DNA of 64,000 bases from Aulosira sp. ZfuVER01 (GCA_034530615.2 JAVRCV020000022.1:32001-96000); one strand, 5' to 3'. Shown: positions 41,185 through 63,024, numbered from the stretch's first letter. Made by a program: numbers and translations. Notes: generated by a model not told the origin, from the letters alone.

Positions 41185-41239
41185 GTAAGAGATGCGATCG
41201 CACTATAGTTTTACAACGTAGATAACACACAGAGTAATC

Positions 41240-43514: not shown

Positions 43515-43738
43515 GGAAATGGAACAGAGAGATTAGTAGGGGCCTGGGGCTAAAACCCCAGGGGGGATTTGGGAATTCCAAGATTCAAAATTAAAAATTC
43601 AAAGTTGTCAATTTTGGTTTTGCATTTTGAGTTTTGAATAATATTCCCACTCCCCAACCTGAATTCTCGTTTCTTGAACCCGCAAGAAATGCTCATTGTT
43701 TGACCAGTCACGAATTCAGTCAGCTTGGAGATCCAAAA

Positions 43739-45026
43739 ATGCCTCAGAATCCAGATAAAATTCAAGATCACGTAGAACTGTTCCACCAACCGGAATACCA
43801 ACAATTATTCCAAAACAAGAAAGAATTTGAAAACGGTCACGACCCTGAAGAAGTAAAACGGGTTGCAGAATGGACAAAGAGTTGGGATTATCGTGAAAAG
43901 AACTTCGCTCGTGAAGCTTTGACCGTTAACCCTGCTAAAGGTTGCCAACCTTTGGGCGCTATGTTCGCTGCTGTTGGCTTTGAAGGTACTTTACCTTTCG
44001 TTCAAGGTTCTCAAGGTTGCGTTGCTTATTTCCGTACCCACTTAACCCGTCACTACAAAGAACCATTCTCTGGCGTTTCTTCTTCCATGACTGAAGACGC
44101 AGCGGTGTTCGGTGGTCTGCAAAACATGATTGATGGCTTGGCAAACTCTTACCAACTTTACAAGCCAAAAATGATCGCAGTCTGCACCACCTGTATGGCT
44201 GAGGTTATCGGTGATGACTTGGGTGCGTTTATCACCAACTCCAAGAACGCAGGTTCAGTTCCTCAAGATTTCCCAGTACCTTTTGCTCACACTCCTAGCT
44301 TTGTTGGTTCCCACATCACTGGCTACGACAACATGATGAAGGGAATTCTGACTACCTTAACCGCAGGTAAGCAGAAATCTGCTAGCAATGGCAAAATCAA
44401 CTTCATCTCTGGTTTTGACACCTACGTTGGCAACCTCCGGGAAGTAAAACGTATCGCTTCTCTGTTCGGCATTGACTACACCATCCTCTCTGATAACAGC
44501 GATTATCTGGATGCACCTAACACAGGTGAATTTGATATGTACCCAGGTGGTACAAAGCTGGAAGATGCAGCTGATGCTATTAATGCTAAAGCTACAGTTG
44601 TTATGCAAGCTCACTCTACTCCTAAGACCCGTGAGTACATCGCCAAAGAGTGGAAGCAAGATGTTGTAGTTTCCCGTCCCTGGGGTATCAAGGCTACCGA
44701 TGAGTTCTTGATGAAACTCAGCGAACTGAGTGGTAAACCAATTCCCAAAGAATTAGAAATCGAACGCGGTCGCGCAGTTGATGCGATGACTGACTCCCAT
44801 TCATGGGTTCACGGTAAGCGCTTCGCTATCTACGGCGACCCCGATTTAGTTTACAGCGTAGTTGGCTTCATGCTGGAAATGGGTGCTGAACCTGTACATA
44901 TTGTGGTTCACAACTCCAATGAAGTGTTTGAAAAAGAACTTCAAGCATTGCTAGATTCTAGCCCCTTCGGTAAGGATGGAAAAATCTGGGCTGGTAAAGA
45001 CTTGTGGCACTTACGTTCTCTTTTGT
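43739..45026 (+). CDS. nifK: Nitrogenase MoFe beta chain, 5' part (interrupted)
   Basis: [18 protein letters not shown]; homology stops at [11 protein letters not shown], stop at 45043; usual FTEPVD...DRHH C-terminus absent. Confidence 0.93.
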
Positions 45027-45180
45027 GTTTGCTATCAGGCTAATTAAAGGTTTTGACTTTGCAATGATTGATAGCGATCGCCTAATCTCTATACTTGGAT
45101 ACTGCAATCCAAAATTTACAATTAGTATCAATTATAACATAACATTTAAAATTGCATAGAATACAGACTATGAACATTCG

Positions 45181-47179: not shown

Positions 47180-47419
47180 GTTATTGTGCTTTTGCGTGAT
47201 AGATTACAGCCTCAGTCGTCTCTTTCCAGGGTACAAGCTTTACCGATACTCTTGGCACAGGCTAAACAAAGTTCTATCGTTTTACATGGCAGTGTTGAAG
47301 AAAAATTCAAAGGTCACAAGACAGGAGCATAAATTTTGACTCCTGACTCCTGAATTATATTTGGATAAACTTTTGTAATTAATACCCAATAACTCTTTAG
47401 TTTCACTGATGATGACGGT

Positions 47420-47892
47420 GTTTCCATCCCCTTTCGGGGCGATGTGATTGGAAAGACATGTGTAACATATGCTACATACGTATGGAATCAAATGTTTCCA
47501 TCCCCTTTCGGGGCGATGTGATTGGAAAGACCTGCAAAGTGCTGGCGCAAAGTACGACATTTGTGTTTCCATCCCCTTTCGGGGCGATGTGATTGGAAAG
47601 TCAGCGTTAGGAATCGACCCTGACAAACCTGTAGTTAATCGTTTCCATCCCCTTTCGGGGCGATGTGATTGGAAAAGTAAAATTTTTTACACACCCAGCA
47701 GTCAGCAGTTTGAGTTTCCATCCCCTTTCGGGGCGATGTGATTGGAAAGTGACTTGGTTAGCTATGAAAATAGTGATACCAGGGGTTTCCATCCCCTTTC
47801 GGGGCGATGTGATTGGAAAGTACTTCTACTGCTACTGCTCCTACCAACCCTCCAACGTTTCCATCCCCTTTCGGGGCGATGTGATTGGAAAG
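47420..47892 (-). CRISPR. Orphan CRISPR array, 7 repeats / 6 spacers
   Basis: 36-bp repeat CTTTCCAATCACATCGCCCCGAAAGGGGATGGAAAC (minus) at 47420, 47494, 47565, 47641, 47714, 47785, 47857; leader 47893-48080. Confidence 0.95.
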
Positions 47893-48271
47893 AGTTCACT
47901 TTTGGAAGCCTTACAGAGACAGGGTTTGAGATACCCGAATCGACGCATCTCTGAAAAATTGCAAAAAGTTTTCCAAAAATTGTCAATTTTGCAGTCCCAA
48001 AGCCTTACTAGGCAAGTCATCGACGCACCTTAACGAAGTTATGCGGTTTTCAAGGTTCGGACGAGATGCGTCGATGAGCGACGCACGCTATTTTTAAAAT
48101 ATAACTTTTTAGATATTTAAGTCAAATTTATTACATAAAGTTTACAGAGAACTGAGTGATGAGCGATCGCATCTCCCCACCAAGAATTTTTGACGGCTTA
48201 ATAGGCGATGTCTGTCTTGAAAAGTTCAGATCGGCGGAAGCCGCCGCTCCGACTTTTCGCTACGACGGGCT

Positions 48272-48511
48272 ATGCCTACGCGCAATTTTGAGCCAACAGA
48301 CAAGATATGCGATCGCTCGTTAACAAGGCAAGCACTTTCTTTAACAAACCAAGCACGCTTAGTTAGTGGTGTAGCGTCGAAGTATGGCAAAGACAGTCGG
48401 GAATATGAACTAGCAGGTGCGGTACGAAAAAGCGAACGCGCTCGTAAAGCTACCATCACGCGGTTAAAATCAAGCGCAGAGGCAAAAGCAACTTCTACAG
48501 AAATACCATAA
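48272..48511 (+). pseudogene. 3' remnant of a hypothetical gene
   Basis: GVASKYGKDSREYELAGAVRKSER; 5' part replaced by repeats; tail duplicated at 59177. Confidence 0.45.
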
Positions 48512-48567
48512 TTTGAATGTGCGATCGCTTCTACAACTCAAACATCACCAGTTACAAGAGCGATCGC
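48432..48567 (+). repeat. 136-bp direct repeat, left copy
   Basis: Homologous to 59177-59312; last ~48 bp identical, bounded by two HIP1 sites. Confidence 0.85.
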
Positions 48568-48652
48568 TTTAAACTAGCAAGTGAAGTCCTTTGTCATTTG
48601 TCAACGCCTTTTTTACTTCTGAATTCTAGATTCTGACTCCTGAATTCTGCTT

Positions 48653-49432
48653 CTAATTAATCCCCAGTAACTCTTTAGTAGCTGTAGCATTGCCAACCAT
48701 ACGCGAATCGCTGAAAATTTGATTGAGAAATTCTTTGGTAGCATCAACAGCTAAAGCTCGTGCATTTGAAAATCCCTGTCGGCTATCATCGTCTTTATTT
48801 AATCCGGTGGGACAGAGAACTGGGACGCCATGACGGCATTTGCCTGTAGGAACACCACATAAACCTTGGCTGATGAGGAAATACCCAGAAGTCAATTGAT
48901 TTAAACCTGCACCGCCGAGTGTACTGGGATCTTGAGGACAAGTTGGTGTATTTTTATCGGCTCCGGAGAATTCTTCCCGTCCTAATTTAGTGTTAATGTT
49001 AGGGCTGCTATGTCCCATTTCTACCCAATTACTGTGAGCGTAAAAGTCTTGGAGAGTATGCAAGGCTCCGCCTAAATCTTTACGTGCTGAAGACGCTTCT
49101 GGATCTGAATCAATAACTTTAGTAATGCTTCTTTCTTTAAGGCGGATCAAGCGTTTACTACCACCCAGAAAATCTTCACCATCAAAATGCTTTTCTGTAT
49201 CAGCCTGGTTGACTGGTTGATCCGTATCTTTATTAGCATCAACAATTTGCTGGATAGCTCGCTGGGAAAATTGTAACTTCTCATTATTAATTACAGGTTG
49301 AGTAGCAGCCAGTGCCTCTCTTGTGATTGCTTCATGTATAGGAACCTTAAAAGCTAAGGCCGATTTAGGCATCCATAAAATTAGTGCTAATGTCAATAGC
49401 ACCGCCATAGTAATTTTTTTCAAACTTTGCAT
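48653..49432 (-). CDS. Secreted HET-C/VWA7-N-like (Zn phospholipase C/P1 fold) protein
   Basis: Signal peptide ALA|F, HE, HFD, LHTLQDFYAHSNWVE, LNKD. Confidence 0.65.
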   Translation of the reverse strand: MQSLKKITMAVLLTLALILWMPKSALAFKVPIHEAITREALAATQPVINNEKLQFSQRAIQQIVDANKDTDQPVNQADTEKHFDGEDFLGGSKRLIRLKERSITKVIDSDPEASSARKDLGGALHTLQDFYAHSNWVEMGHSSPNINTKLGREEFSGADKNTPTCPQDPSTLGGAGLNQLTSGYFLISQGLCGVPTGKCRHGVPVLCPTGLNKDDDSRQGFSNARALAVDATKEFLNQIFSDSRMVGNATATKELLGIN

Positions 49433-49478
49433 ACCTGAATATCTCCAAAGTACAGGAAAAAAACCTTAGTGGGGAATG

Positions 49479-51200
49479 CTACTCGTAGCTAGAATCGTAA
49501 TGATAATCTGAAGCTAAAACCAGTCGCCAACTAGTATCTTGAGTGAGTTCTAGCGCGTATTGATGATAATTTAATAAGGTAGATCTGTGACCAACGCTGA
49601 TAAAAGTTGTTTCAGTTTGTCGCAATTGTTGGTAGAGATTTTCCTCATTCTGCAAATCTAAAGCACTAGTTGCTTCATCCAAAATAACGTAACGCGGACG
49701 TGTCACTAATATGCGTGCAAAAGCGAGACGTTGTTGTTCTCCTAAAGACAATATATTTTCCCAATACACCTCTGCATCCAAACCACCAACTCTTGCAAGT
49801 AAGTTTTGCAGATTGACTTGTTCTAAAACTTGTTCGAGTTCCCGATCTGTAACAGCAAGATTTCTATTGGGATATAATAGTTGTTCTCGCAGAGTTCCCA
49901 AAATTAGATAGGGACTTTGGGGTAAAAACATCATTTCTGCTAAATTTGGTCGTACTAAATGACCTGTACCAGTGTTCCACAAACCGGCAATTAGTCGTAG
50001 CAGAGAACTTTTACCAGAGCCGCTAGAACCTACAATTAACAATCCACCAGGTTCAACTGATACTGATAAATCTTGAACTAAAACTCTCTCATAGTTAGGA
50101 GTTTGTAAAGTGACTTGTTCGAGGGAAATACGCTCTGCTTCTACTGTTTCAATAGTACTACCAGAAACTGTTGTATTTGCTGCTAAAGCATTTAAAAAAG
50201 TAGCGGCGCGATCTATCAAACTTGCCAGTGAACCGAAAGAGCCAAACTGAGAGATAATAACTGAAAACGCACCTGCGACTTGAGCGCAAGCTATAGTTGC
50301 TTGAGAAATTTCTCCTAGTTCTATTTGACCGACGAAATATAAAGGTGCTACCGTTAAAAACGGAACTATATAGAGAAAAGATTGATAACCATTGATAAAT
50401 AATTGAAGATTTCGCTGCCAATCTAGAATATTATTTGAGCTTTCAATCAGTTTAGTAAATCTTCTATTCAGAATACTTGATTCCTGAGCTTCTCCTCGGA
50501 AAAAAGCAATAGATTCAGTATTGTTGCGAACATGAGTTAAAGCATAGCGGTAATCAGCTTCTGCTTTAAATTTATCCGTATTCATATTACTCAGTTCGCG
50601 ACCGAGGAAAATTGTTATAGCATTGCCTATAATGGCATAAATAATTAAAACAAATACTATTAGTTTGGAAATAGACCAAAGAATTCCAATAAAAGCCATA
50701 ATTACCAGAGTTTTTTCCAAAACAATGAACAAAAAATTTAGCAATCCGTTAGGAATTGGTTCAAGCTCCTGAGATATGCGTTGGTCTGGATTTTCAATTT
50801 CTGGCTGAAAGGTAATTTGATAGTAAGCTTGTCCACGAAAATATTTATCCAGGAGATATGTGTTTAGCCATTGATACCAATCGAGAGCTAGCTTTTTTCT
50901 TAAGTACTCAGAGAACACTATTAGTGGCGTAATTACCGCAAAAGTCCCAATGTAAAGAAATAATAGGCGAAAAAAGTTTGGTGCATCTTTTTGTTCCAAT
51001 ACATCAAACAAGTCACGATTGATATAGCTGTTATATGCATTGAGGCTATTGTAAGATAGCAGTAATAACAGCAGTAAAGCTAACATAAACCATGACCACA
51101 AAATTTGTGGAATCGTCCTGAATCTTTCTTCAGAGGGATACCAGTAAAGTTTAGCAATAGTCAAAAATTGATTCCACAAATGACTGTCAAATATATTCAT
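49479..51200 (-). CDS. ABC transporter, fused permease/ATPase (YddA/ABCD type)
   Basis: NPDQRI, ESIAFFRG, GSSGSGKSS, LSLGEQQR, ILDEATS. Confidence 0.93.
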   Translation of the reverse strand: MNIFDSHLWNQFLTIAKLYWYPSEERFRTIPQILWSWFMLALLLLLLLSYNSLNAYNSYINRDLFDVLEQKDAPNFFRLLFLYIGTFAVITPLIVFSEYLRKKLALDWYQWLNTYLLDKYFRGQAYYQITFQPEIENPDQRISQELEPIPNGLLNFLFIVLEKTLVIMAFIGILWSISKLIVFVLIIYAIIGNAITIFLGRELSNMNTDKFKAEADYRYALTHVRNNTESIAFFRGEAQESSILNRRFTKLIESSNNILDWQRNLQLFINGYQSFLYIVPFLTVAPLYFVGQIELGEISQATIACAQVAGAFSVIISQFGSFGSLASLIDRAATFLNALAANTTVSGSTIETVEAERISLEQVTLQTPNYERVLVQDLSVSVEPGGLLIVGSSGSGKSSLLRLIAGLWNTGTGHLVRPNLAEMMFLPQSPYLILGTLREQLLYPNRNLAVTDRELEQVLEQVNLQNLLARVGGLDAEVYWENILSLGEQQRLAFARILVTRPRYVILDEATSALDLQNEENLYQQLRQTETTFISVGHRSTLLNYHQYALELTQDTSWRLVLASDYHYDSSYE

Positions 51201-51351
51201 TTTGGTTCTCTAGCTTCGACTATCTAAAATTTGAATCTTGGGCTAAGTTAAGTGTGGATATGTTTGCATATCAATGTAGACTGCCTACGATTTTCCTTGC
51301 ACATAAATTATATTTTGGACTAATCTATGAAGTGGCAATCTTGTCAAACTC

Positions 51352-52236
51352 CTATATTACTCCTAAAGTCATTTGGTAATACAGGTTTAAATTTTCCACT
51401 TTTCCGGCTAGTAATTCTCGTTCTCGAAAAGCGACGATTGTTCCTCTTATAGGTTGTTTTTGATAATAAGCATGTACTTTATCTGCTACATGATTGCGTA
51501 AGTTACCAATAAAATTCTCCGGATCTGAAGTAGGGCAATATAGGATTGTCTCTGGGTTAGCTTTAGAGAAACCAAACCCAAATGCCCAGCATTTATCTAA
51601 AAGCTCTAAAGCCACTGGAGACAAAAGTTTTGCTAGTAGCTGTTGTAAGTTAACTGCTGCTTGTAATTCTTGTTTGAGGATTCTCGTATACACTTCAATG
51701 GTGCTATAACCATTTAAGAAAAAATCAAAACCTACTACCACTAGACTGCTTTCCAAAATTAGTGGTTGCATCTCTGGCGGTGGGTTCCCCAAAGCAATTG
51801 CTTTTTCTATTTTTTCTGGATACTCTTGCATCACAAACCAGAGTTTCAGGCGCGAAGCTAATAGTTCGGGACGCAAATCGACTCCCACTAATATTTGTGT
51901 GAGTTTGTGAGGCTCAAAATCATTACCTAAAAATTGATGCAATAACCCATAATCTAATTGCACTCCATTTTTTGCTTCTACTTGGTTAAAAAAATTGAGT
52001 ACAGCATTGAATTGTTCAAAATCTGGGTGATTGCGAAATAGGTTAAATCGAGCGGGATATAGCTTGTCTTTCTCAATCTTACAAGAACACTCCAGCCCCC
52101 AATCTTCTGCTTGTTGAACAAAGTTCTCGAAAATATCTAACGGATAAAATGATTCAACTTGGAATACACGTTTATGTTCGCTAATAAAGTCTAGGTTTTG
52201 ATGGCTATCGAGCAAGGTTTTATTGGTAGTAATCAT
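51352..52236 (-). CDS. LynF/TruF/PagF family peptide prenyltransferase
   Basis: FISEHKRVF, YPLDIFE, LECSCKIEKDKLYPARFNL, GVDLR...SRLKLWF, NLYY. Confidence 0.88.
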   Translation of the reverse strand: MITTNKTLLDSHQNLDFISEHKRVFQVESFYPLDIFENFVQQAEDWGLECSCKIEKDKLYPARFNLFRNHPDFEQFNAVLNFFNQVEAKNGVQLDYGLLHQFLGNDFEPHKLTQILVGVDLRPELLASRLKLWFVMQEYPEKIEKAIALGNPPPEMQPLILESSLVVVGFDFFLNGYSTIEVYTRILKQELQAAVNLQQLLAKLLSPVALELLDKCWAFGFGFSKANPETILYCPTSDPENFIGNLRNHVADKVHAYYQKQPIRGTIVAFRERELLAGKVENLNLYYQMTLGVI

Positions 52237-52433
52237 TATTCGCAAAAGACCTAATTTGATAAGATATGGTCTTAACTAACATTTAGATCCGCTAAATTCT
52301 TCATGGACTATAGCGCGGATGAGCCAATTAGCATTATTTGTGTTAATGCTGCTTTAAAAGCTGAATGGGATGCTCGTAAGTTAGGTGCAGCATCGATTAT
52401 GAGAAAAGCAATCAGAATCTAGGCTTTATTAAA

Positions 52434-52976
52434 TTATGCTTGTGGCTTGTTAGGGCCAGGTAAACCAGCAGGCGTGTAGACAGGGGATTCACTCGCTAGT
52501 CGTCCGATAATGGTTAAGGTTGTAGTTGCTAGCAACATGGTGATATTCAGGATGCTACCAGGATCGATTCTCCCTGTTTTTTGAAACTTGTCGATCAGAT
52601 CGGCGATCGCAGGTAAGATTGCTAAAAGGGCTGTTGAAACTGCTCCCCAAAAAGTTTTACTTTCAAAAATGCTTTTAGATTGACTAAACTCTGTCCTATT
52701 AGGGCCGGGGAGACTATCAGGTGTATATACAGGTGTCTCAGCATCAATCCGTCCAATAATTGTTAAGCCTGTTGTTGCTAGTAACAATGAGATTTTGAAA
52801 ATGGTGAGGGGAGAAATTCTGCCATTCTTCAAAAACTCTTTAACCATGTCGGTAACGGCTGGAGTAATAGCCACAACAGCTGTCGAAACTGCTCCCCAAA
52901 AAGTTTTGCTTTCAAAAATACTTTTAGATGGATGAGAAGCAAAGACGGGTAGAACTGGTTCGGCAGAACTTTGCAT
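52434..52976 (-). CDS. Small membrane protein of two tandem repeats
   Basis: SKSIFESKTFWGAVSTA...LLATT.LTIIGR...PVYTP..LPGPN occurs twice. Confidence 0.7.
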   Translation of the reverse strand: MQSSAEPVLPVFASHPSKSIFESKTFWGAVSTAVVAITPAVTDMVKEFLKNGRISPLTIFKISLLLATTGLTIIGRIDAETPVYTPDSLPGPNRTEFSQSKSIFESKTFWGAVSTALLAILPAIADLIDKFQKTGRIDPGSILNITMLLATTTLTIIGRLASESPVYTPAGLPGPNKPQA

Positions 52977-53655
52977 AAAAATTCTCCAACTGAACGTTCT
53001 GTTTGAAGTAGTTTAATGAATCAAGCTGTAGAGGGCTGCAAATTTTGGAGTTATCTTGACCTAACTTAGTACTTCTCAAGCCTATATCTTGAGTTGGGTA
53101 ATAAAAAGTTACTTTTTCACCATTTATTTTCTGCAAAGGATTTGTATTCTACGGTAATACTTAGTGGCTAGCTAGTAACATCCTCCGGCAGATATAATTC
53201 ACAGGACTGAACTTAGCTCTAATTTTCTACAAAAAGAAGTATTGCCAATTACTGATGCAGATGTATATCAAATAGCATAAGATTACACTAACGCAGATAT
53301 AAAAAAATATTAGTTTTACTGAATAATATTTGCATATTTTTGGTGAATATTTCAAAAATCATCTAACTAAAAATATTAAAGAACTACTGGTGTTAGATTA
53401 ACAATATTTTGTTGAGTTTAAGTAAGTGTATTTTTGCAATCTCCAATCTGTATAAGTTTTACTGTAAAAAATAAAGTTATTACATATATATATAGTAATT
53501 TTAAATACATTATTTTGTTCATATTTTAAGACAATTATGTCTTTTTATCGTTAAAATTTGTAAATTTACTGCTTACTAAATAAAAAAATCTTTAATGATC
53601 GATGTGTCGACTTTAACAGTTTGATTAAGCTGAGAATTCAGTTGAGAGGTAATTT

Positions 53656-53937
53656 ATGTCTACCAATACTGTTAAGCAATCCTCTGCTAACTACTTAGAG
53701 CAGTTATTGCAGCGATCTGCGGTTGATGCAACATTTCGGGATGAATTAGCGGCTAATCCTGAATCTTTTGGTATTTCCTCTGATAGTAACCTTGTACTGC
53801 CAGCCGCAGTTCTAGAGCAAGAACAGTCCTGTATCGAATTGACTGATGATATTGCAGATAGGCTAATAATTGCAGCATGTCAAACCAGCTGCACTGGTGG
53901 CCCATACACTATCGTTTGTGATGGTTCAACCAAGTAA
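53656..53937 (+). CDS. Cinnamycin-family lanthipeptide precursor
   Basis: NHLP-like leader (RSAVDATFRDELAANP); 19-aa core CQTSCTGGPYTIVCDGSTK vs cinnamycin CRQSCSFGPFTFVCDGNTK. Confidence 0.92.
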   Translation: MSTNTVKQSSANYLEQLLQRSAVDATFRDELAANPESFGISSDSNLVLPAAVLEQEQSCIELTDDIADRLIIAACQTSCTGGPYTIVCDGSTK

Positions 53938-54189
53938 GTAATGCAATAATTTCATATTTCACAGTTGCATCCTGCTAAACCAGCTGTAAACTCTGGTTTT
54001 TGCATAAATGGGTGCAAAGAAAATTCCAAGTTTAGTAGCCCTTATTTCCCAGAGGAGCTAACTAAGCTGTATTTTCTCGTGAAAGAAAATCATTTTTTAG
54101 GCTAGCGTCGCAATATTTCTCATGTGACGCTAGTTTAATTCACTCAAACTCATATCTGGTACCTACATCCTGATAGGGTATAGATCGCA

Positions 54190-57100
54190 ATGCTTGATAG
54201 CTATTCACTCATTGAATTTGCCAGCCGCGCTAGCAATCTATCTGAGCGCACTTCGATTATTAAGCAATTAGCTGAACACGATTTACAGGTAGAGTGTATT
54301 AATCAAATTAATCCTCTTGATACCTGGATTGTGGACAAATTAGCAGGAAAATTAGCTATAAAGTCTATTAAGAAGAACTCTAATCAAAATCAGCAGGAAT
54401 TTGAGCTAGCTACAAAAACTGCTGATTTCAAAGAAATACTCACTAACTATAAATTCTATGAGTTAAATTTAGCTAATTTACCTGAATCAGATAGGTGGGA
54501 ATTTATTAAACCCCATAGTAAATGGTTAGATACATACCAAGCAGCTTTAGCAACATTAGATTTACCAATAAAGGATTTTAATACTAGTTACTGGTATCAA
54601 CCTAATATTTACTACGGAAAATTTGCTAAAGTTTGCGAACCATTTCTACGACTATTACAGCAAAAATTACATCTATCTACAGCTAGCAGCTATCAAATTA
54701 ATCCGCAAGTCTTAACTGACATTCAGATGCACCTGCTAAAGCGCTTTGAACTTTCTTTAGCTTGGGCATTGGAAGCAGATATAAATGTTTACTGTGCTAA
54801 AAATAATATCGCTAAAACAGCTGATTCTCTTGATGCTTACATCGCTTATTTGGAAAATACATTTAGTAGCGAGGAAGATTACCATCGCTTTTATAGCAAG
54901 TTTCCTGTACTCGGACGTTGGTTAGCTCAAATCACTAATTTTCTTTACACTGTTGCGGAGAAACTGATACAGCGTTTGACTTTGGATTTGGAAGAAATTA
55001 GTTCCACATTCTTTGATGGTAGACAAATTTTACAAATTAAATCCTTAAAGTTAGGTCAGTCCGATCATCATGCTGAGGGTAATAGTGTCATAATTATTGA
55101 ACTAGAGTTAATCAATGGTGAAATTGTCACTCTTGTTTATAAACCTCGCTGTTTGCAATCTGAAGTAGCAATGCAAGGGTTTTTAGAAACTTTAAACCAA
55201 GCAAAAGTTATCGAATTCGCTACTTATCGAGTGCTTTGTCAGGATGGTTACGGTTATGCAGAGTTTATTACCTCTGGAAAAAATCATGTTCAAAGCGAAA
55301 AAGACATTGAGCAGTTTTACAACCAACTTGGTGGATATTTAGCAATATTTTATATTCTCGGCGGCGGCGATATGCATTATGAAAATATTCTTGTCGCCAA
55401 TGGTAATGCGTTTATTTGTGACTGCGAAACAGTTTTAGAAGTCATACCCCAGAGATTAGATAAGTTACCAAATACGGTATTTGATTCTGTATTTAAAACT
55501 GTAATGCTGGATTGGCCTCGCCCAAAAGCTGCGGGAAAAAATATCAGTATAACTGGTTATAGTGGTGGTGAATCTTATGAGTCTCCATTTACTGTGACTA
55601 AAATTAATGACTATCGAATGTCATTAGCTTTAGCAGTAGAATCCAAGGTTGGGGAAGAGGTTAAGGTAGAAGCAACAAATCGCATCTATTATCAAGGAAA
55701 GCTAGTCAAACCGCAGAATTATCAAGACTACATTGTTGGTGGATTTAACAAAGTTTATAGTTGGTTTCAAGATAATCAAACCCTAGCAATAGAGCAGATA
55801 AAACAACTATTTACACCTTCATCAGTACGTTTTATTAATGTAGGAACACAAGCTTATGTTAAGTTGATTGCTGCCGCCCAACATCCTAAATGTTTAGCCG
55901 ATCCATTAGAAGTAGATGTAATATTCAACAGTTTAATTGAGTGTAGTAAGGAGTGGGATGAAAATAATCAGATAGCTGAATGTGAAGTTGCGGCTTTATG
56001 GCAATTAGATGTTCCTTTGTTTACAGCTAAAGCAAATGATGCCGAGCAACTAATTTATAACTATCAACATTCGCTATCATGTCATTTAGTAAGTTCGCCC
56101 TTGGATAATGCTGCCAAGCGTATTCAGAAGTTAACTCGAGAAAACCAAATTAGACAAAATCAATATATTTATGCCAGCTTGTCTACCGAGGAAATTAATA
56201 ATCAATATTTCATTGCTGCGGCTGTTAATTATGCACAACAAATAGGCTGGCAATTGTGCGACTTACTAGAGCCACCCATAAGCAATGCTCCGTGGAAAAA
56301 TTATGAATTCACAGGTACTAGTAAAAACTTAGTAGATATTCGGTCTGATTTATATGCTGGGACGGCAGGAATTTGCCTATTTTTAGCTTACCTAGATTAT
56401 GTACAACCACAGCCTGAATTCCGCCAAGCGGCAGAAAGAGCTTTAGATTATTCTATTAAGCGACGTGATACTACAACCATTGGCGTATTTCAAGGAGCAA
56501 CTGGTTTAATTTATCTGTTAACACACCTTGCTCAACTATGGAATAAACCAGAACTACTCGATTTAGCTGTTAACTTGATTGATGAACTAATTCCTATTAT
56601 TAATCAAGACAAATACTTTGACGTTCTTCATGGTGTTGCCGGGATTATTCCTGTGATGCTAACTTTAGCAGAAGCTGGATATGAGTCAGCACTCGATTGT
56701 GCTAACAAGTGTGCAGAACACTTGCTCAAACATGGAATTTGTGAAAACGGTACGCTGAGTTGGCCTTGTCATCCACCAGAATTAGCACAAGCAAATTTAA
56801 CTGGCTTTTCTCACGGTGCTAGTGGTATTGGCTGGGCGTTAATTTTGCTTGGTTGCTATCTACAAAAAGATGAATACGTTCAAGCCGGACGCCAAGCTTT
56901 TGCTTATGAAACTACTAAATTTGATGTAGCCGAGAGAGATTGGTATGACTTGCGGACATCAATGATGAAATCAAATTCAAATATGCCACATTTTGCTAAC
57001 GCTTGGTGTAATGGTGCATCTGGAATTGGTTTAAGTCGTATTGCTAGTTGGGCTGCTTTAGGCAAAGTTGATGAGGATTTATTGCGCGATGCTTATGCAG

Positions 57101-57435
57101 CATTGAGTGCAACATTACGCAATTTTCAGCAGTTAGGAAATGATTCATTATGTCATGGTAGAGCAGGCAATGCGGAATTGCTATTACGGTTTGCCGAGTT
57201 GAGGGATGAGCCTTATTTACAGATGGAAGTAAATATCCAAGCACAAGCACAATGGCGAAATTTTGAGAATACACGTCATTGGATTTGTGGTACTGGTGGT
57301 AGCGATGTTGTCCCCGATTTAATGTTGGGATTAGCAGGTATTGGCATACACTTTTTACGTTTAGCCTATCCAAAAGAGATTCCTTCACCCCTGCTATTAG
57401 ATCCGCCATCTAAGAGTGTATTGATGAAATCTTAA
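54190..57435 (+). CDS. lanM: Class II lanthipeptide synthetase
   Basis: SDHH, VYKP, DMHYENI, DCET dehydratase; GFSHG, WCNG, LCHG cyclase motifs. Confidence 0.95.
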   Translation: MLDSYSLIEFASRASNLSERTSIIKQLAEHDLQVECINQINPLDTWIVDKLAGKLAIKSIKKNSNQNQQEFELATKTADFKEILTNYKFYELNLANLPESDRWEFIKPHSKWLDTYQAALATLDLPIKDFNTSYWYQPNIYYGKFAKVCEPFLRLLQQKLHLSTASSYQINPQVLTDIQMHLLKRFELSLAWALEADINVYCAKNNIAKTADSLDAYIAYLENTFSSEEDYHRFYSKFPVLGRWLAQITNFLYTVAEKLIQRLTLDLEEISSTFFDGRQILQIKSLKLGQSDHHAEGNSVIIIELELINGEIVTLVYKPRCLQSEVAMQGFLETLNQAKVIEFATYRVLCQDGYGYAEFITSGKNHVQSEKDIEQFYNQLGGYLAIFYILGGGDMHYENILVANGNAFICDCETVLEVIPQRLDKLPNTVFDSVFKTVMLDWPRPKAAGKNISITGYSGGESYESPFTVTKINDYRMSLALAVESKVGEEVKVEATNRIYYQGKLVKPQNYQDYIVGGFNKVYSWFQDNQTLAIEQIKQLFTPSSVRFINVGTQAYVKLIAAAQHPKCLADPLEVDVIFNSLIECSKEWDENNQIAECEVAALWQLDVPLFTAKANDAEQLIYNYQHSLSCHLVSSPLDNAAKRIQKLTRENQIRQNQYIYASLSTEEINNQYFIAAAVNYAQQIGWQLCDLLEPPISNAPWKNYEFTGTSKNLVDIRSDLYAGTAGICLFLAYLDYVQPQPEFRQAAERALDYSIKRRDTTTIGVFQGATGLIYLLTHLAQLWNKPELLDLAVNLIDELIPIINQDKYFDVLHGVAGIIPVMLTLAEAGYESALDCANKCAEHLLKHGICENGTLSWPCHPPELAQANLTGFSHGASGIGWALILLGCYLQKDEYVQAGRQAFAYETTKFDVAERDWYDLRTSMMKSNSNMPHFANAWCNGASGIGLSRIASWAALGKVDEDLLRDAYAALSATLRNFQQLGNDSLCHGRAGNAELLLRFAELRDEPYLQMEVNIQAQAQWRNFENTRHWICGTGGSDVVPDLMLGLAGIGIHFLRLAYPKEIPSPLLLDPPSKSVLMKS

Positions 57436-57448
57436 CCAGGAATACTTA

Positions 57449-58372
57449 ATGATGCTAAAACAAGCTATTTTAGAGTTTCATAAAAAAATCTCCAAAAGCG
57501 AGGAGATGCAACAGCAAATTAGGGCAATTACAACTTATCAAGAATTAATTAAGTTTGGTGAAAGGTACGGCTATTCCTTTACGAAGGAAGATATTAGAAA
57601 TGCGAGTAGTTCTATCAATGAGAATGAGCCAGAAGTTCCTGTAAGGCAAGCTGTTTCTAGTTCAAGTAAAATTTCTCAGCAGAAGTATCATCATGAATTC
57701 AAATGCTTAGATATTCCCGAATTAGCAAAAATTGCTCCAGAGTTTGATAAGTTAAAAATTAAGCCAAGTACGGTAGATATTAACCACTTTGACAGTTATT
57801 TTAGAAAGGATGATTTTAACTTTCTTTCTCTCTCTCCGGCTGCACAAGAATTCAATTCTCGTCATCATGAGATTGTTACGTCAGAGAGTAGTTCCGCAGT
57901 TCTGGAACCTTATCCTGAATACACTAAACGTTCGTTTCACTTAATAAATTTGGATCTTCATGTCGATCACTTAGTTTATGAACAGTATTTTCTGACTAAA
58001 TTGAAAATAATTAAATATCTAGAAAATCTTTTTGAAACTGAAGTTAGATTTTCGGGCAGCTTATGGTATCCGCCTAATTCTTATAGATTATGGCATACCA
58101 ATGAAACCCAGCCTGGTTGGAGAATGTATTGGATCGATTACGATGGTTTTGAGCAAGATACTCGCGATCGCCCATTTTTTCGCTATATGAATCCTGAGAC
58201 TAAGGAGTTGGTAACACTTGAGGAACAATCGAAGATAGTCAGGTTTTTTAGGGTCGAAAATGATGCCAATAAATTATTCTGGCATTGTATAGCTAACCCA
58301 ACAAAATTTAATCGCTGGAGTTTCGGATTTGTTGTTTCTAACAATTGGATGGATAAATTATTTTGTGGCTGA
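57449..58372 (+). CDS. Nif11-like domain fused to putative Fe(II) oxygenase/cupin domain
   Basis: N-term ILEF..K...QQI...ELIKFG..YGYSFTKEDI; C-term YPP...WHTN...WHC...RWSFGF. Confidence 0.55.
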   Translation: MMLKQAILEFHKKISKSEEMQQQIRAITTYQELIKFGERYGYSFTKEDIRNASSSINENEPEVPVRQAVSSSSKISQQKYHHEFKCLDIPELAKIAPEFDKLKIKPSTVDINHFDSYFRKDDFNFLSLSPAAQEFNSRHHEIVTSESSSAVLEPYPEYTKRSFHLINLDLHVDHLVYEQYFLTKLKIIKYLENLFETEVRFSGSLWYPPNSYRLWHTNETQPGWRMYWIDYDGFEQDTRDRPFFRYMNPETKELVTLEEQSKIVRFFRVENDANKLFWHCIANPTKFNRWSFGFVVSNNWMDKLFCG

Positions 58373-58413
58373 GAAAAACACAAGTAATAAATTGAAGATA
58401 GAGGTAGATTGGC

Positions 58414-59133
58414 GTGAATAGCAATGTATTAGAGTCTTCTCCCATCGCTCCACGAAACTGGCAATCAGTATTAGAAGTATATCAAGCTTCTGCGCCATTC
58501 AATTATGCAGTGATGGATAATTTTCTCCATCCTGATATATGCCATAAACTTCATCAAGAACTGCTAAATCATTGGGGATGGAGCTATCAAGAGCATCTGG
58601 AACACCCTGTAATTAGTAATACAGCACCAGAAATTGAGACCATTTTTATGATTGCAGAATCGCTCAAAGCTCATTGTTCTTCTTTATTGTTAGGTTATGA
58701 ATTAGTTGAACACTGGGCACTGATATATCCTAAAAACGCTCCAGGGAAAGTGCATTCTGATATTGGCGCTATTACTTTAAATATTTGGTTGACACCAGAG
58801 CAGTTCAACTTAGATTCTAGCAGTGGCGGCTTGATTTTTTTTGATGTCAAGCGGCAATCTGAAGCTACCTCGAATCAGTCTGTATCATATCTTTGGTCAG
58901 AGCAGTATTTGAAAGATTTTACCCAAGGACAAAAAGCTACTGTTAATTATAAATGGAATCGTGCATTACTATTTGACGCTAAAACTTTTCATCAAACTGA
59001 TACTTTTTGCTTTGCCAATTTGCAACCGGATTCTCACCGCATTAATCTTTCTTTAGCATTCGACAATCCTGAACTTTATGGCGATCGCATTGACTCGTTT
59101 AAAAAAATGTTGAAGACTTCTCAATCCAGTTAG
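58414..59133 (+). CDS. Putative 2OG-Fe(II) oxygenase
   Basis: HSD...GGLIFF...NRALLFD..TFH...RINL. Confidence 0.7.
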   Translation: MNSNVLESSPIAPRNWQSVLEVYQASAPFNYAVMDNFLHPDICHKLHQELLNHWGWSYQEHLEHPVISNTAPEIETIFMIAESLKAHCSSLLLGYELVEHWALIYPKNAPGKVHSDIGAITLNIWLTPEQFNLDSSSGGLIFFDVKRQSEATSNQSVSYLWSEQYLKDFTQGQKATVNYKWNRALLFDAKTFHQTDTFCFANLQPDSHRINLSLAFDNPELYGDRIDSFKKMLKTSQSS

Positions 59134-59176
59134 GGCATAACGTATGGGTAAAGCGATGGCTTCGCCAACGCCAAGG

Positions 59177-59312
59177 GCGAACGCGCTCGTAAAGCCACGA
59201 TTACTCGCTTAAAATCAATCGCAGACGCAAAAGCAACTTTTACAGAGACGCCATAATTCAAATCTGCGATCGCTTCTACAACTCAAACATCACCAGTTAC
59301 AAGAGCGATCGC
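59177..59312 (+). repeat. 136-bp direct repeat, right copy
   Basis: Homologous to 48432-48567. Confidence 0.85.
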
Positions 59313-59853
59313 AAAGCCTTCATAACCTATACATCTTTTTTGATTTGTCAAGTTCATACTATACCAAGCTTCTACTGTAGACAACTTATGGTTGCAGTCA
59401 CATTTGTAGCAACACTAAGGGTAACGCAAACAAGCCGATTTGCATAAATCAAGCTGAAATTGAGACATTCTTGACTAGATTAGTAAACTTTTATCACGAG
59501 AATGCGCACATTGAAGTCTTGAAGTTTACACTGACTTTTGACATAGCGTGGAGAACACAAGGGTTATTCTTCTAACAAACAACTCTAGGTAGCTGTCAAT
59601 CTGTTCTGTGATCCGCCTAATTGGTGTAGTAAACATCAAATTTTCACTCTTTGCATACTGTTGAGATCGACTTCCCGAAAATTGTTCACCCGCCCGGAAA
59701 CTAATATTTTTTTTGCAGAGCTAGAACTACTGTAGAAATTGAGGTACAAGTTCACCATGACTTTGGCAAGCGTTATTGCTTGTCGTTAGTTAATGGTGAA
59801 ATGTCACGAGCGATCGCAGTCAAACACAGTCCTCGCATAAGTTAGCTTTGGCT

Positions 59854-60792
59854 ATGTTGAGTCAGATTTTTGATGCTTTGAATATGTATCTTCCACCACC
59901 AGTACCACCATTACCGGCACCTAGCCTTTCAGCGATCGGTGTGACGGAACGGACAATTGGGCTGGGAAACCGTCGCGGTAACGAGACACGTGGGGGTATT
60001 GCTGTAGTCGCCTTAAAGGGGGGAAGACTGGATGCAGTAGTGCGGTTTCAACTTTGGGCTAGCCAATTCGATGAAGTAGAGACGGCACTGATTGAGTTAC
60101 GCGATCGCTTAGAAGCAGATAAAGTAAATTTACGGTCTCAAGGCTTTCTGCGCTTTGCTTTAGAAGCCATATCCCAAGCCGAGTTTAACCCCACTCTCAA
60201 TGCCTGGTTCAAAACCCTCGATTGCAAAGTTTTATACGAGTTTTACTACCAAGACACTGACGGTGCTGAAAGCTTAATTACTCGCATTCCCGTGGCTATC
60301 AATGGGGAATACAGTGAGTCTACCATCGTGACTGGGGACATGGTGCGTTGGGATAACGAGCGATCGCCAACCCTCGTTGTACAAGGATCTTTGATAATTA
60401 GCCGTTTGACAGCTTTAGTCTTTATTCCTGGTACAACGCCTGCTGGTGCGGTACTCCTCACACGTAGGGATGGTTCGGCTAGTTCGCCCACAATCTACCC
60501 CACCTTAGCAGCATTTCTGAGTGCGATCGCAGATGCCAAAGCCCCGACTCGTAATGCTTTGGTCATCTTTCCCACTTTCAGCGATTTCTTGAGTGCCTTT
60601 CAAGCAGCAGGCGATCCTGTAACCTTGGGTGACTGGAATCAAGATGGAGTACCAGACACTTACCAATCGCGGGCACTGGTACTGAATCCAGCCATTGAGC
60701 TAGCAAATTTTACAGACCGTTTAGAGATTGCTTATCAAGATACTGCTCTTAACCAGGTTGCCGTAGTTTATTTACGCGCTGGACGCAAATAG
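59854..60792 (+). CDS. Hypothetical protein, first gene of tail-like operon
   Basis: ~312-aa ORF directly upstream of sheath gene. Confidence 0.65.
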   Translation: MLSQIFDALNMYLPPPVPPLPAPSLSAIGVTERTIGLGNRRGNETRGGIAVVALKGGRLDAVVRFQLWASQFDEVETALIELRDRLEADKVNLRSQGFLRFALEAISQAEFNPTLNAWFKTLDCKVLYEFYYQDTDGAESLITRIPVAINGEYSESTIVTGDMVRWDNERSPTLVVQGSLIISRLTALVFIPGTTPAGAVLLTRRDGSASSPTIYPTLAAFLSAIADAKAPTRNALVIFPTFSDFLSAFQAAGDPVTLGDWNQDGVPDTYQSRALVLNPAIELANFTDRLEIAYQDTALNQVAVVYLRAGRK

Positions 60793-60863
60793 AGCATCTA
60801 GAGCTATTCCCCATGACTAAACATGGTTATTTCATCTCCCCAAATTAAGGAGGATACGCAAAC

Positions 60864-62003
60864 ATGACAGATATTTTGCCAGGTGTCTATATTCAAGTGC
60901 GAGCCGAGGGATTGATTGTCCCTGGTGGGATTTCATCAGGCAATATTGGTATTGTCGGTACTGCCAAACAAGCAAAAGATTCCCAAGGTAACGATATTCC
61001 AAATTTGACAGTCGTACCTCTGGGCAGTTACGACGAGGCAAAACAAATCTTCGGAGACTACGATGCCTTTGATCCCACTAAAGCAGTAGAAGATTTTACT
61101 TTAGTGCGGGCTTTAGAAATAGCCTATTCCAACGGTGCTTCCTCAGTTTATGCAGTCAAAGTTCCGACTACCAGTGACACTGACTATAAAGCAGGTTTTG
61201 ACAAGTTATTGACCGAAGATGTGCAAATCGTAGTGGCTGCCGGTAAAGGCTTGGGGGCTAGCGACACAGGTATCGGTAATGAACTACAGTCCCATGTCGC
61301 TCAAGCTTCAAACGACGATTTTAAAAATGAACGGATTGCGGTGATTGGTGGCCCGCTCAACGCGACAGTAGCTCGGTTAAAGGCCAACAATCTCAGTGAT
61401 GCTGATGGTCGTATTATCCTCGTCGCGCCAGGGATTAGATTTACTGACGCCGCAGCTAAAAATGCTGATGGTAAAGTCGAACCGAAAGATGTCATTCTCC
61501 CAGCAGCTTACACGGCGGCGGCGGTTGCCGGATTACTTAGCTCTCGTAGTCCACAAGTGAGTTTAACTAATAAAACGCTGTCAGTAGCAGGGTTAGAAAC
61601 CAAGTTTAACGCCACCGAACTCAAAGACCTAATCAACGCAGGGGTATTGGCTCTAGAAGAACGGCGGGGCTTCCGTGTGGTTAGGGCTGTGACGACTGGT
61701 TTTAATGGAGGTGCTTTCGGGCAAATTACTACTCGTCGGATTGTAGACTTTGCCCGTAAAGGAGTACGTTCTGCATCTGAACCTTATATTGGTTTACTCA
61801 ACAACGACCGAGTGCGTAAAGCTCTCAAAGGTTCCATCAACGGCTTTTTAGCAGGGATGGTGGATGATGAGCAGTTGATTAGTTATGACTTGGATGTCAC
61901 CGCCACAAGAGATGAAGAGATTCGAGGCATTGCGAAAGTAACTCTGACTGTGCGTCCAACCTTCAGCATCGAATTTATCAAGGTAGTAATGTTCCTCGCT
62001 TAA
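60864..62003 (+). CDS. Contractile phage tail sheath protein
   Basis: LPGVYI N-term, IGIVG, RRIVD, YIGLLN, VRPTFSIEFI C-term. Confidence 0.88.
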   Translation: MTDILPGVYIQVRAEGLIVPGGISSGNIGIVGTAKQAKDSQGNDIPNLTVVPLGSYDEAKQIFGDYDAFDPTKAVEDFTLVRALEIAYSNGASSVYAVKVPTTSDTDYKAGFDKLLTEDVQIVVAAGKGLGASDTGIGNELQSHVAQASNDDFKNERIAVIGGPLNATVARLKANNLSDADGRIILVAPGIRFTDAAAKNADGKVEPKDVILPAAYTAAAVAGLLSSRSPQVSLTNKTLSVAGLETKFNATELKDLINAGVLALEERRGFRVVRAVTTGFNGGAFGQITTRRIVDFARKGVRSASEPYIGLLNNDRVRKALKGSINGFLAGMVDDEQLISYDLDVTATRDEEIRGIAKVTLTVRPTFSIEFIKVVMFLA

Positions 62004-62015
62004 GGAGAATCTTAA

Positions 62016-62519
62016 ATGCCCAATACTAACGTTTTCCGTGGCTCTGATGCCACCTTGACCCTCGCTAGTGAAGACTCACCAGAGGGACAAGCAGCTAACG
62101 AAATCATTGAATTCTACCAACTTAGCCCCGTCGGTCGGGCAACGAGTGTAGAAGTTTACGTGCAGACAGAGCTAGAACTATTTCATGAAATTGGTAGACG
62201 CCATCCAGCGGCCCTACGACCAGGCAACATCAATATCAGTGGTAAGATTGGTCGAGCTTATATCAACGGCGCTCTGTTGCGGCTGCTGCTAGGTAAAGGG
62301 GCATTAGTAGCTCGCGAAGCCGAACCCTACCCCCAACCATCCTTTAATTTGCTATTGGATTTGAAAGATCCAGCTATACCCAACACTAGCAGTACTCTGA
62401 CCATACATGGTGTGAAGTTCGAGAACTGGGCATATAGTCTACCTGAAGACGACTTTGTCATGGAATCTGTGAGCTTCAAGGGTCTGTTTATCACTGTTGA
62501 AGATAGAGAAGCTGCATAG
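62016..62519 (+). CDS. Probable tail tube protein
   Basis: 167 aa after sheath; HEIG...PGNINISG, FVMESVSF. Confidence 0.7.
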   Translation: MPNTNVFRGSDATLTLASEDSPEGQAANEIIEFYQLSPVGRATSVEVYVQTELELFHEIGRRHPAALRPGNINISGKIGRAYINGALLRLLLGKGALVAREAEPYPQPSFNLLLDLKDPAIPNTSSTLTIHGVKFENWAYSLPEDDFVMESVSFKGLFITVEDREAA

Positions 62520-62553
62520 AGATAACTAAAAATTGGGAAATTTTTGATTGCTT

Positions 62554-63024
62554 ATGACTCTCAGTGCTGAAGAGTTACTGGCTGGCAGTACTTTAACTCA
62601 CGAAGTAGAAATTCCATTTGACTTGCTAAGTACCAACGGTAACGGTACAGCTGATACCAGAGTAGTGTTGCGTCCGCTAACTGTACGCGATTTGCAAAAA
62701 ATTGCCAAGGCAGCTCGTGATGACGAGCAATTGTCTGCAACATTGATGATCCAACAGGGACTAGTTGAACCAGCGCTGAAACTAGAACAGGTTTCGCAAT
62801 TACCCGCAGGTATGGCGCGCTTTTTGGTGGAACGCATCAATACAATCAGCGGCATCAGCACCCCCCGCGACGCCTTGGCGGAGTTAGTGCAAACGCCCTT
62901 AGCCAGGGCCTGCTTCTTTCTAGCCAAAGAGTTTGGTTGGACACCAGAAGAGGTGAGTGGAATGACTATCGGTCAAATTCTGCTTTACCTGGAAATGGCT
63001 CGTGGAGGTGATGCTACGGGATGA
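62554..63024 (+). CDS. Probable tail assembly chaperone-like protein
   Basis: VVLRPLTVRD, LAKEFGWTPEEVSGMT. Confidence 0.6.
   Translation: MTLSAEELLAGSTLTHEVEIPFDLLSTNGNGTADTRVVLRPLTVRDLQKIAKAARDDEQLSATLMIQQGLVEPALKLEQVSQLPAGMARFLVERINTISGISTPRDALAELVQTPLARACFFLAKEFGWTPEEVSGMTIGQILLYLEMARGGDATG

Follow-up and report, generated by a model that had tools for sequence, protein, structure and literature searches.

A cinnamycin-type lanthipeptide gene cluster of Aulosira sp. ZfuVER01 with a probably dedicated prenyltransferase of the cyanobactin F family

Peptides of the cinnamycin class are the reference ligands of phosphatidylethanolamine and serve as probes and as starting points for drugs; a main route for tuning the action of peptides on membranes is lipidation. 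The gene clusters of cinnamycin and duramycin encode CinA/DurA, CinM, CinX and Cinorf7/DurN, and the cinnamycin core carries Ser at position 6. The divamides are cinnamycin-like lanthipeptides of a cyanobacterial symbiont, in which the lysinoalanine bridge is kept and which are N-methylated and not known to be prenylated. A natural prenylated lanthipeptide, steromaze, was reportedly described by Hubrich et al. in 2024, a study cited in PMC12715784. The subject of the present analysis is a gene cluster in which a cinnamycin-type precursor is accompanied by a prenyltransferase (PT) of the cyanobactin F family, found in a stretch of 64,000 nt from Aulosira sp. ZfuVER01 (GCA_034530615.2 JAVRCV020000022.1:32001-96000). 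This whole stretch is called the window, and coordinates are window positions unless a contig or locus is named; the genome is designated G000 and the contig C22.

In the MppC/MppE/MppM system of Moorena producens, a natural class II lanthipeptide first receives its rings and is then prenylated by a soluble PT of the ABBA type, the gene of which lies in the same cluster; MppC geranylates C5 of Trp in a heptapeptide core and depends on a Nif11-type leader (PMC12715784). Cyanobactin PTs have also been used in engineered prenylation of lanthipeptides (PMC12715784). Steromaze, a prenylated cyanobacterial class II lanthipeptide, is named in PMC13647313. Reports of natural prenylation in class II lanthipeptides of cyanobacteria have been published from 2024-25 onwards. 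A sequence-only reading of the window had known of no described example; prenylated lanthipeptides as such are already published, MppC among them, but the combination of a cinnamycin-type cluster with an F-family PT was not found in the literature covered, outside which most subscription papers lie.

The locus is read as a complete class II pathway of the cinnamycin family with an acquired, dedicated F-family PT from the cyanobactin lineage, the product of which would be prenylated at Tyr10 and free of lysinoalanine; the probability of this reading is estimated at about 0.62. Eight genes are arranged in two divergent groups, namely LanA, LanM and the oxygenases Ox1 and Ox2 on the plus strand, and a membrane protein of 180 aa, the PT, an ABC half-transporter and a secreted Het-C-like protein on the minus strand. 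All eight genes, and the 136-nt direct repeats around them, were found where the sequence-only reading had placed them. Its proposal of a hybrid of lanthipeptide synthesis and F-family prenylation is supported, with Tyr10 as the likely acceptor, by comparison with other genomes, in which recurrent linkage, a PT clade of its own and co-variation of Tyr10 point the same way. The comparison sets comprised 389 genomes of the same family, 14 of the same genus and an even phylum-wide sample of 401. The genes on which the reading is centred are the following.

53656..53937, plus strand: LanA precursor, 93 aa (NF033431 cinnamycin_RiPP, 98.8 bits, cut-off 35; PF19398, E 4e-26, 91.5 bits, cut-off 26.6)
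54190..57435, plus strand: LanM, class II lanthipeptide synthetase, 1081 aa (TIGR03897, 592 bits, cut-off 304)
51352..52245, minus strand: F-family (LynF/TruF/PatF) peptide PT, about 294 aa (TIGR04445, 275 bits, cut-off 140; PF19156, E 1e-76)

The C-terminal 19-residue core of LanA is CQTSCTGGPYTIVCDGSTK. It contains Cys1, Cys5 and Cys14 together with Ser/Thr at positions 4, 11 and 18, a set suited to three (methyl)lanthionine rings, with LanM encoded alongside; Asp15 and Lys19 are present, and Thr3, Thr6 and Ser17 are spare. Because of the conserved Cys/Ser/Thr pattern, the three-ring topology of cinnamycin is proposed: LanM would dehydrate Ser and Thr residues of the core and close the thioether rings Cys1-Thr18, Ser4-Cys14 and Cys5-Thr11. 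Here, as for every other chemical step, including the prenyl donor and the regiochemistry, the proposal is deduced from observed gene identities, folds, linkage and residue co-variation. LanM is 62-77% identical to the LanM proteins of seven related loci. Matches of the cinnamycin model with two core-like modules per open reading frame (ORF) were found at L066, L067 and L074 (genomes G666 and G456); their last core ends without Lys, and they constitute a divergent subfamily.

The PT covers positions 1-281 of the 282 of TIGR04445, and its likelier start is the ATG at 52236, where its relatives begin. No other protein of the genome matches TIGR04445. The sequence-only reading had noted that PatA/PatG protease is missing from the cassette, which is correct; genome-wide, too, no match of TIGR03895 exceeds the cut-off, the best one reaching 102 bits against 421 on another contig (a PatE-type precursor was not separately searched for). 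Service of the PT in a cyanobactin pathway elsewhere in the genome was rejected on this result. Since the PT is the sole TIGR04445 match and no protease of the PatA/PatG family is found over the cut-off, the genome appears to hold no other plausible client for it.

In a quick tree of 75 F-family PTs, those linked to lanthipeptide genes fall into one clade of 17 rows with a Shimodaira-Hasegawa-like approximate likelihood ratio (SH-aLRT) support of 100, and 88 columns are invariant in an alignment of 15 sequences of the clade. The outgroup PTs of G743 and G164 adjoin ORFs with N-termini resembling the PatA/PatG subtilisins, as judged by eye without a family scan. The clade looks as if it had been recruited once, out of cyanobactin pathways, into clusters of the cinnamycin type. 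The nearest named relatives are AcyF (47%) and MusF1 (40%); among PDB entries, sequence matches were obtained with PagF and PirF (E 1e-48 to 1e-52) and with LimF and DciF (1e-52 to 1e-68). The closest solved relative is SmiF (PDB 9vt8; E 3.9e-136, 456 bits over 293 residues), with an identity of about 70%, estimated from the printed alignment and from matches of equal score. As the Aulosira PT is more similar to SmiF than to the lanthipeptide-linked PT of either G454 or G515, SmiF very probably belongs to the same clade. It is one of a 2025-26 series of F-family structures in the PDB, with 9VT9-9VTE as sister entries; because so close a relative is deposited there, the clade is already under study by others. 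No paper naming SmiF as a prenyltransferase or a lanthipeptide enzyme was found in the literature covered. Prediction of a complex of the PT with LanA scored 0.02 against a mark of 0.32, which gives no answer either way.

Recurrence of the linkage was revealed by the survey that the sequence-only reading had proposed, for F-family genes beside cinnamycin-type precursors: three further loci were found (G454, G515 and L056). Among the 389 same-family genomes, the closest PT relatives belong to G454 (67%) and G515 (64%), both inside LanA-LanM-Ox1 clusters, while the 14 same-genus genomes contain neither a PT relative at E <= 1e-60 nor a cinnamycin-type LanA. A scan of metagenome contigs with the PT gave seven loci, four of them with full-length PT relatives; two of these four are the G454 and G515 loci again, and L056 (PT 63%) is a new locus with the order PT-Ox2-ABC-LanA-LanM. 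In total, the PT is linked to lanthipeptide genes in four loci, in three different gene orders. The G454 cluster consists of the same eight genes as that of Aulosira, its Ox2 lying just past the stretch first examined; the G515 cluster additionally carries DurN and a methyltransferase. The latter, an S-adenosylmethionine-dependent enzyme, is encoded at L050:8349-9170 between the ABC gene and the PT, and none is present in the Aulosira cluster. The remaining one of the four loci from the metagenome-contig scan is a second, truncated PT of the G515 genome, without lanthipeptide genes.

In the phylum-wide sample, 5 genomes have cinnamycin-type precursors and 14 have F-family relatives. LanM and Ox1, but no nearby PT, accompany the precursor at the other four loci of this sample; two of these genomes contain distant PT homologues (31-37%) on other contigs. 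The search of genome contigs with the PT protein alone gave two distant relatives (31-33%). Three more linked pairs of PT and Ox1, P0001/P0077, P0012/P0078 and P0005/P0079, are suggested solely by the equal size of the largest contig.

The cores of the other PT-linked loci are CQSTCTGGPYTIVCDGTTK (G454), CASTCSFGPYTVICDGTTK (G515) and CRTSCTQGPYTIVCDGSTA (L056). Tyr10 is present in all four PT-linked cores, that of Aulosira included, and in none of 11 canonical precursor genes from eight genomes without an adjacent PT (G284, G320, G050, G065, G500, G493, G723 and G513), in which position 10 is occupied by Ile, Phe, Leu, Ala or Val. Three divergent double-core precursors (one in G666, two in G456) and one sub-threshold match (G713) were left out of this count. 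No F-family PT was found by scanning G493, G500, G513, G723 and G456, the same search detecting the PT of Aulosira. Ser/Thr aside, the other side chains known as acceptors are those of Trp, His and Arg; the Aulosira core has none of them, and for this reason Tyr10 is the most plausible acceptor.

These counts also bear on whether the PT could be a passenger, that is, an orphan or decaying cyanobactin enzyme, or an enzyme for an unrelated small molecule, beside a lanthipeptide that stays unprenylated. Cyanobactin F proteins are sometimes inactive, PatF being an example; the PT is dispensable for the scaffold, since it does not adjoin the canonical cinnamycin-type precursors in eight of the 11 genomes that encode them, and the cassette lies inside a variable island of acquired DNA. 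Nevertheless, the ORF of the PT is intact, the clade of at least 17 rows shows evident constraint at 63-90% identity, the linkage recurs in four loci and three gene orders, no cyanobactin machinery was found in the genome by the TIGR03895 search, and a matching acceptor residue occurs exactly where the PT does. Such a passenger role is considered highly unlikely.

Position 6 and the DurN gene distinguish the Aulosira locus from most relatives. The small gene upstream of LanA in the relatives encodes DurN (PF19375, 97.8 bits; lysinoalanine synthase PDB 6c0g, E 6e-14) and is present in all nine genomes with Ser6 cores (G515, G284, G320, G050, G065, G493, G500, G513 and G723). It was not found (PF19375, E <= 0.01) in either of the two Thr6 genomes, G000 (99.99% complete) and G454 (100% complete). 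In Aulosira, position 6 is Thr, which the sequence-only reading had overlooked, whereas every DurN-linked relative has Ser there; of the Ser6-Lys19 pair needed for lysinoalanine together with DurN, only Lys19 is present. At a third Thr6 locus, L056, the core ends with Ala19 instead of Lys19. Since position 6 is Thr and DurN is missing from the genome, the product would most likely be devoid of the lysinoalanine bridge, that is, a prenylated, lysinoalanine-free relative of cinnamycin. The label "duramycin-class" in the sequence-only reading is too strong, as Thr6 and the genome-wide lack of DurN speak against the bridge that defines the class.

The two oxygenase genes follow LanM on the plus strand.

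57449..58372, plus strand: Ox1, 307 aa, with an N-terminal Nif11-like domain and a domain of the 2-oxoglutarate (2OG) oxygenase fold (the Nif11-like domain is the sole family match)
58414..59133, plus strand: Ox2, Fe(II)/2OG oxygenase of prolyl-hydroxylase-like fold, 239 aa (no family match; assigned from the model and the triad)

The description of these genes as oxygenase-like holds for their structures, since both models fold as Fe(II)/2OG oxygenases, but neither protein matches an oxygenase family in Pfam or NCBIfam. The model of Ox1, based on an alignment of 32 sequences, has a mean predicted local distance difference test (pLDDT) score of 84.8 and consists of a helical N-terminal domain and a jelly-roll domain; in Foldseek it matched Fe(II)/2OG oxygenases of the PHD2 prolyl-hydroxylase type at E about 1e-5, with low TM scores of 0.3-0.45. 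More than 311 homologues were found, with full-length matches of 45-46% identity in actinomycete genera, and Ox1 is present in all six related loci seen whole. It is interpreted by analogy as a CinX-type beta-hydroxylase of Asp15. In public databases, homologues of Ox1 (about 305 aa) are mostly named "Nif11-like leader peptide family natural product precursor"; this naming is likely a systematic mis-annotation caused by the N-terminal Nif11-like domain, which might instead bind the precursor peptide.

The Ox2 model (pLDDT 93.6) matched PHD2 and SnoN in Foldseek (E about 1e-9, TM 0.5-0.64), and the triad H114-x-D116...H193 is invariant across 47 sequences; 1040 relatives were found at E <= 0.001. 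Ox2 is accessory: G284, G320, G454, G515 and L056 have it, whereas the genomes G050 and G065 do not. Pro9 occurs in five of six Ox2-linked cores and in neither of two Ox2-less cores, and is put forward, with low confidence, as a possible target of Ox2. Sequence comparison of Ox1, Ox2 and the Het-C-like protein with PDB chains gave nothing meaningful.

Several observations weigh against prenylation of Tyr10 by a dedicated PT or against parts of this scheme. Tyr occurs once at the equivalent position without a PT, in the divergent double-core precursor L074 of G456; taken with the four of four and none of 11 above, the PT is therefore always accompanied by Tyr10, but Tyr at this position needs no PT. 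Elsewhere in PT-less cores, Tyr is found at positions 7 and 13 (G493) and 17 (G320). The PT-linked loci are kin: the LanM tree joins G000 and G454 as sisters (100/100), without a resolved place for G515 among the PT-less loci, and the association of Tyr10 with the PT may therefore rest on only one or two evolutionary events. In one genome, the PT of the clade (P0004, largest contig 28 kb) and the Ox1 homologue (P0083, 164 kb) are apparently on different contigs. The function of SmiF could point to another role for the PT clade. As regards Ox1, the presence of Asp15 and of an enzyme with a 2OG fold, linked in six of six loci and with actinomycete homologues, is observed, and the equation of this enzyme with CinX is putative. 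Among the public sequencing runs listed, three DNA runs, from which the stretch may derive, and no RNA run hold the locus.

Undehydrated Ser/Thr, the N-terminus and Lys19 are possible alternative acceptors to Tyr10. In this version, the PT would act on the lanthipeptide at an undehydrated Ser/Thr, as TruF does, at the N-terminal amine or C-terminus, as MusF does, or at Lys19, left free without lysinoalanine. F-family enzymes use many acceptors (PMC12715784). Of the nearest named relatives, AcyF and MusF1, neither is known to be a Tyr O-prenyltransferase; Thr3, Thr6, Ser17 and the free Lys19 are available in the Aulosira core, and Thr6 is common to three of the four PT-linked cores. However, Tyr10 alone is invariant among the four PT-linked cores and missing from every one of the 11 canonical cores without a PT; one PT-linked core lacks Thr6 (Ser6 in G515) and another lacks Lys19 (Ala19 in L056), and Thr3/Ser3 and Ser17/Thr17 also occur in PT-less cores. 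Modification at another site is accordingly regarded as unlikely, and Tyr10 is retained as the candidate acceptor.

The remaining genes of the cluster are located on the minus strand.

48653..49432, minus strand: secreted VWA7_N/Het-C-like protein, 259 aa, with an N-terminal signal-like segment (PF25107, E 7e-29; PF07217, 21.8 bits)
49479..51200, minus strand: ABC half-transporter with ABC_membrane_2 and ABC_tran domains and no peptidase domain (family matches)
52434..52976, minus strand: membrane protein, 180 aa, composed of two repeats of about 85 aa (internal duplication; no family over the cut-off)

Orthologues of the Het-C-like protein are encoded beside the LanM clusters of G284, G454 and G515. 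The ABC half-transporter, a probable exporter, is 78% identical to its counterpart in the G454 cluster, 71% to those of G515 and L056 and 42% to that of G284. For the membrane protein, there is an orthologue (70%) next to the PT of G454 and, at the edge of the G515 cluster, a partial match (57%). The Het-C-like, ABC and Ox2 genes do not form a module on the PT side; because all three occur in the PT-less cluster of G284, they belong to the lanthipeptide cluster itself. PADLOC had no match for the Het-C-like protein or the membrane protein, nor for Ox2, the small-gene family described below or the ORF at 59848-60792.

The cluster is flanked by direct repeats, which include parts of a small multi-copy gene.

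48272..48511, plus strand: degenerate ORF, 79 aa, left over from a small gene present in many copies (complete length about 128 aa); its 3' end makes up the first 80 nt of the left repeat
48432..48567, plus strand: left 136-nt repeat, comprising the last 26 codons and the stop of the small gene and 56 nt downstream
59177..59312, plus strand: right 136-nt repeat, the coding part of which is a 34-codon 3' stump of the same small-gene family, cut by an upstream stop

The repeats are 90% identical (14 of 136 positions differ, the last 48 nt being identical), with no chance matches expected. A tblastn search with the complete copy at C10:64005-64388 located the small gene at 14 places in the genome, the 79-aa remnant included, which leaves at least 13 other copies; no Pfam family matched over the cut-off. 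Several copies contain the in-frame insert SDGFANAKGE, which suggests a small repeat inserting into coding sequence. The coding parts of the two repeats differ mostly at synonymous sites, and a fresh target-site duplication was rejected on the 14 differences and their mostly synonymous nature. The two copies are each other's closest relatives, and the identical 48-nt tail occurs in no other copy of the genome. These features fit an old att-like or homologous-recombination junction. Taken literally, the term "repeat-bounded cassette" of the sequence-only reading is right, but its repeats derive from a gene with many copies, of which they are diverged ends, and did not arise by a fresh duplication; no recombinase is encoded between them.

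It is conceivable, if doubtful, that the repeats are att-like sites at either end of a self-contained mobile cassette which moved the eight genes as a unit, and not chance neighbours derived from a multi-copy gene. The genes fill the interval with 86 nt and 44 nt spare at the ends; the mutual closeness of the two copies and their private 3' segment, as well as the mostly synonymous coding differences expected if one arm arrived with the incoming DNA, agree with such a unit, as do the lower G+C content of the cassette (0.37 against 0.41 for the genome) and the absence of a cinnamycin-type LanA or close PT relative from the 14 same-genus genomes. On the other hand, no integrase or transposase lies between the repeats; with so many other small-gene copies, the flanking remnants may be a coincidence or a product of homologous recombination; no member of the small-gene family was seen in the examined parts of related clusters, and no empty site in relatives.

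The window as a whole covers a nif cluster, with genes for NifS, NifU, NifH, a 3'-truncated NifD and a truncated NifK.

43634..45043, plus strand: 5' part of nifK (TIGR01286, positions 1-433 of 516; interrupted at about 45026)

Residues 2-442 of the intact NifK of the same-genus genome G425 correspond to C22:75703-77025 (window 43703-45025) and residues 438-524 to C56:41183-41443, so that the last 87 residues of nifK are encoded on contig C56. A 520-aa ORF at C56:39584-41146 ends 40 nt from the nifK junction and is a serine recombinase by its N-terminal motif, an assignment made by eye and not by a family scan; both junctions have a core of about 12 nt in common. A split nif gene, a short direct repeat and a recombinase, the latter recognized by eye, are accordingly all found, as in a nifK element. 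DNA conservation with all 14 same-genus genomes ends exactly at the break, and in one of them, G424, nifK is interrupted at the same codon without the cassette. The cassette starts 3.4 kb inside the interrupting DNA. By these sequence features, it is cargo in a large insert splitting the nitrogen-fixation gene nifK, an interruption element to which all DNA from about 45026 to the end of the window belongs, which reaches the end of C22 and resumes in C56, and which measures at least 70 kb if the contigs abut. Interruption elements of nif genes have been described, among them nifK elements that carry an XisF-like recombinase (PMC4874684), with which the serine recombinase recognized by eye at this junction agrees.

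Other DNA of the same element surrounds the cassette. Just to its left (47419-47897) is a CRISPR-like array with no cas genes alongside, in which seven copies of a repeat of about 37 nt follow one another with a period of 71-76 nt. To its right, 59848-64000 is occupied by a cluster resembling a contractile injection system, with phage sheath domains at 60864-62003 and a tail-chaperone-like ORF at 62548-63024; it apparently resumes at C56:2623-12249 and has no DNA match in the 14 same-genus genomes. The array and the injection-system cluster are cargo of the same nifK element.

The rest of the nif cluster is also interrupted. NifD (22955-24337) is truncated at profile position 436 of 466. In the following 19 kb or so (24643-43251), pentapeptide-repeat proteins, a restriction enzyme of type II and a DNA methylase are encoded, together with an IS200-like gene and a 472-aa protein weakly matched to tyrosine recombinases; this region has the appearance of a nifD element whose nifK-proximal end carries an XisA-type recombinase. 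Upstream of nifS, a fusion of reverse transcriptase with Cas1 and two proteins matching the XisF model (536 and 523 bits against 375) are encoded at 1731-3752, 10584-12125 and 16967-18529, and this region is probably the end of an fdxN-type element. Because of this probable third end, the nif cluster may carry three interruption elements.

In the proposed pathway, after ring closure by LanM, Ox1 would hydroxylate Asp15, as CinX does, and Ox2 would carry out a further oxidation, possibly at Pro9, which is a weak suggestion. The PT would prenylate the phenol of Tyr10, most likely after cyclization, the prenyl group serving as a lipid anchor on the face with which cinnamycin enters membranes, and the ABC protein would export the finished peptide. 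The broadest version of this scheme is rather unlikely to hold in full: a natural family of Tyr10-prenylated cinnamycin-type peptides in heterocystous cyanobacteria, with a branch devoid of lysinoalanine, in which prenyl-Tyr may replace the lost cross-link and the lost Phe7 in membrane binding, and with the pathway being excised together with the nifK element in heterocysts. If it were true, heterocyst-linked excision would tie a membrane-active lipopeptide to cell differentiation. The lysinoalanine-free branch would include the Aulosira locus, with L056 as a relative with Ala19, and a prenyl-Tyr product of this kind would reveal which parts of the scaffold are dispensable. The PT would also be an F-family enzyme evolved for a thioether-bridged, possibly leader-bearing substrate, and a clean case of a tailoring enzyme moving between classes of peptides that are synthesized ribosomally and modified after translation. 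By analogy with developmentally excised elements, the location within nifK raises the question of where and when in the filament the peptide would be made. The co-variation rules, Tyr10 with the PT and Ser6 with DurN, are directly usable for sorting clusters in genome mining; these two rules and the location in a nifK element are new as far as checked.

Compared with the described systems, the Aulosira locus shares with the cinnamycin and duramycin clusters of actinomycetes the precursor family (NF033431/PF19398), the pattern of Cys1/Cys5/Cys14, Ser/Thr4, Thr11, Thr18 and Asp15-Gly16, and a LanM with a linked 2OG oxygenase, the homologues of which reach 45-46% identity in actinomycetes. It differs in its cyanobacterial host, in the lack of DurN and in Thr6 in place of Ser6, probably with no lysinoalanine, as well as in the additional genes of the F-family PT, Ox2, the Het-C-like protein and the duplicated membrane protein. 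With the divamides, it shares a cinnamycin-type scaffold with extra tailoring in a cyanobacterium, while among the loci considered here a methyltransferase is found only in the G515 cluster. With the F-family PTs of cyanobactin pathways (PagF, PirF and LynF, acting on Tyr; LimF and DciF), the enzyme has the TIGR04445 family in common, and Tyr is the best-supported guess for its acceptor; unlike those pathways, the genome has no PatA/PatG protease over the cut-off (a precursor was not searched for), and the PT belongs to a separate clade of lanthipeptide clusters. Cyanobactin PTs act on leaderless macrocycles, whereas the substrate of the Aulosira PT possibly bears a leader. Finally, MppC is longer and has residues 336 and 340, whereas the Aulosira PT, with about 294 aa, is of the canonical F-family kind and is encoded beside a cinnamycin-type precursor.

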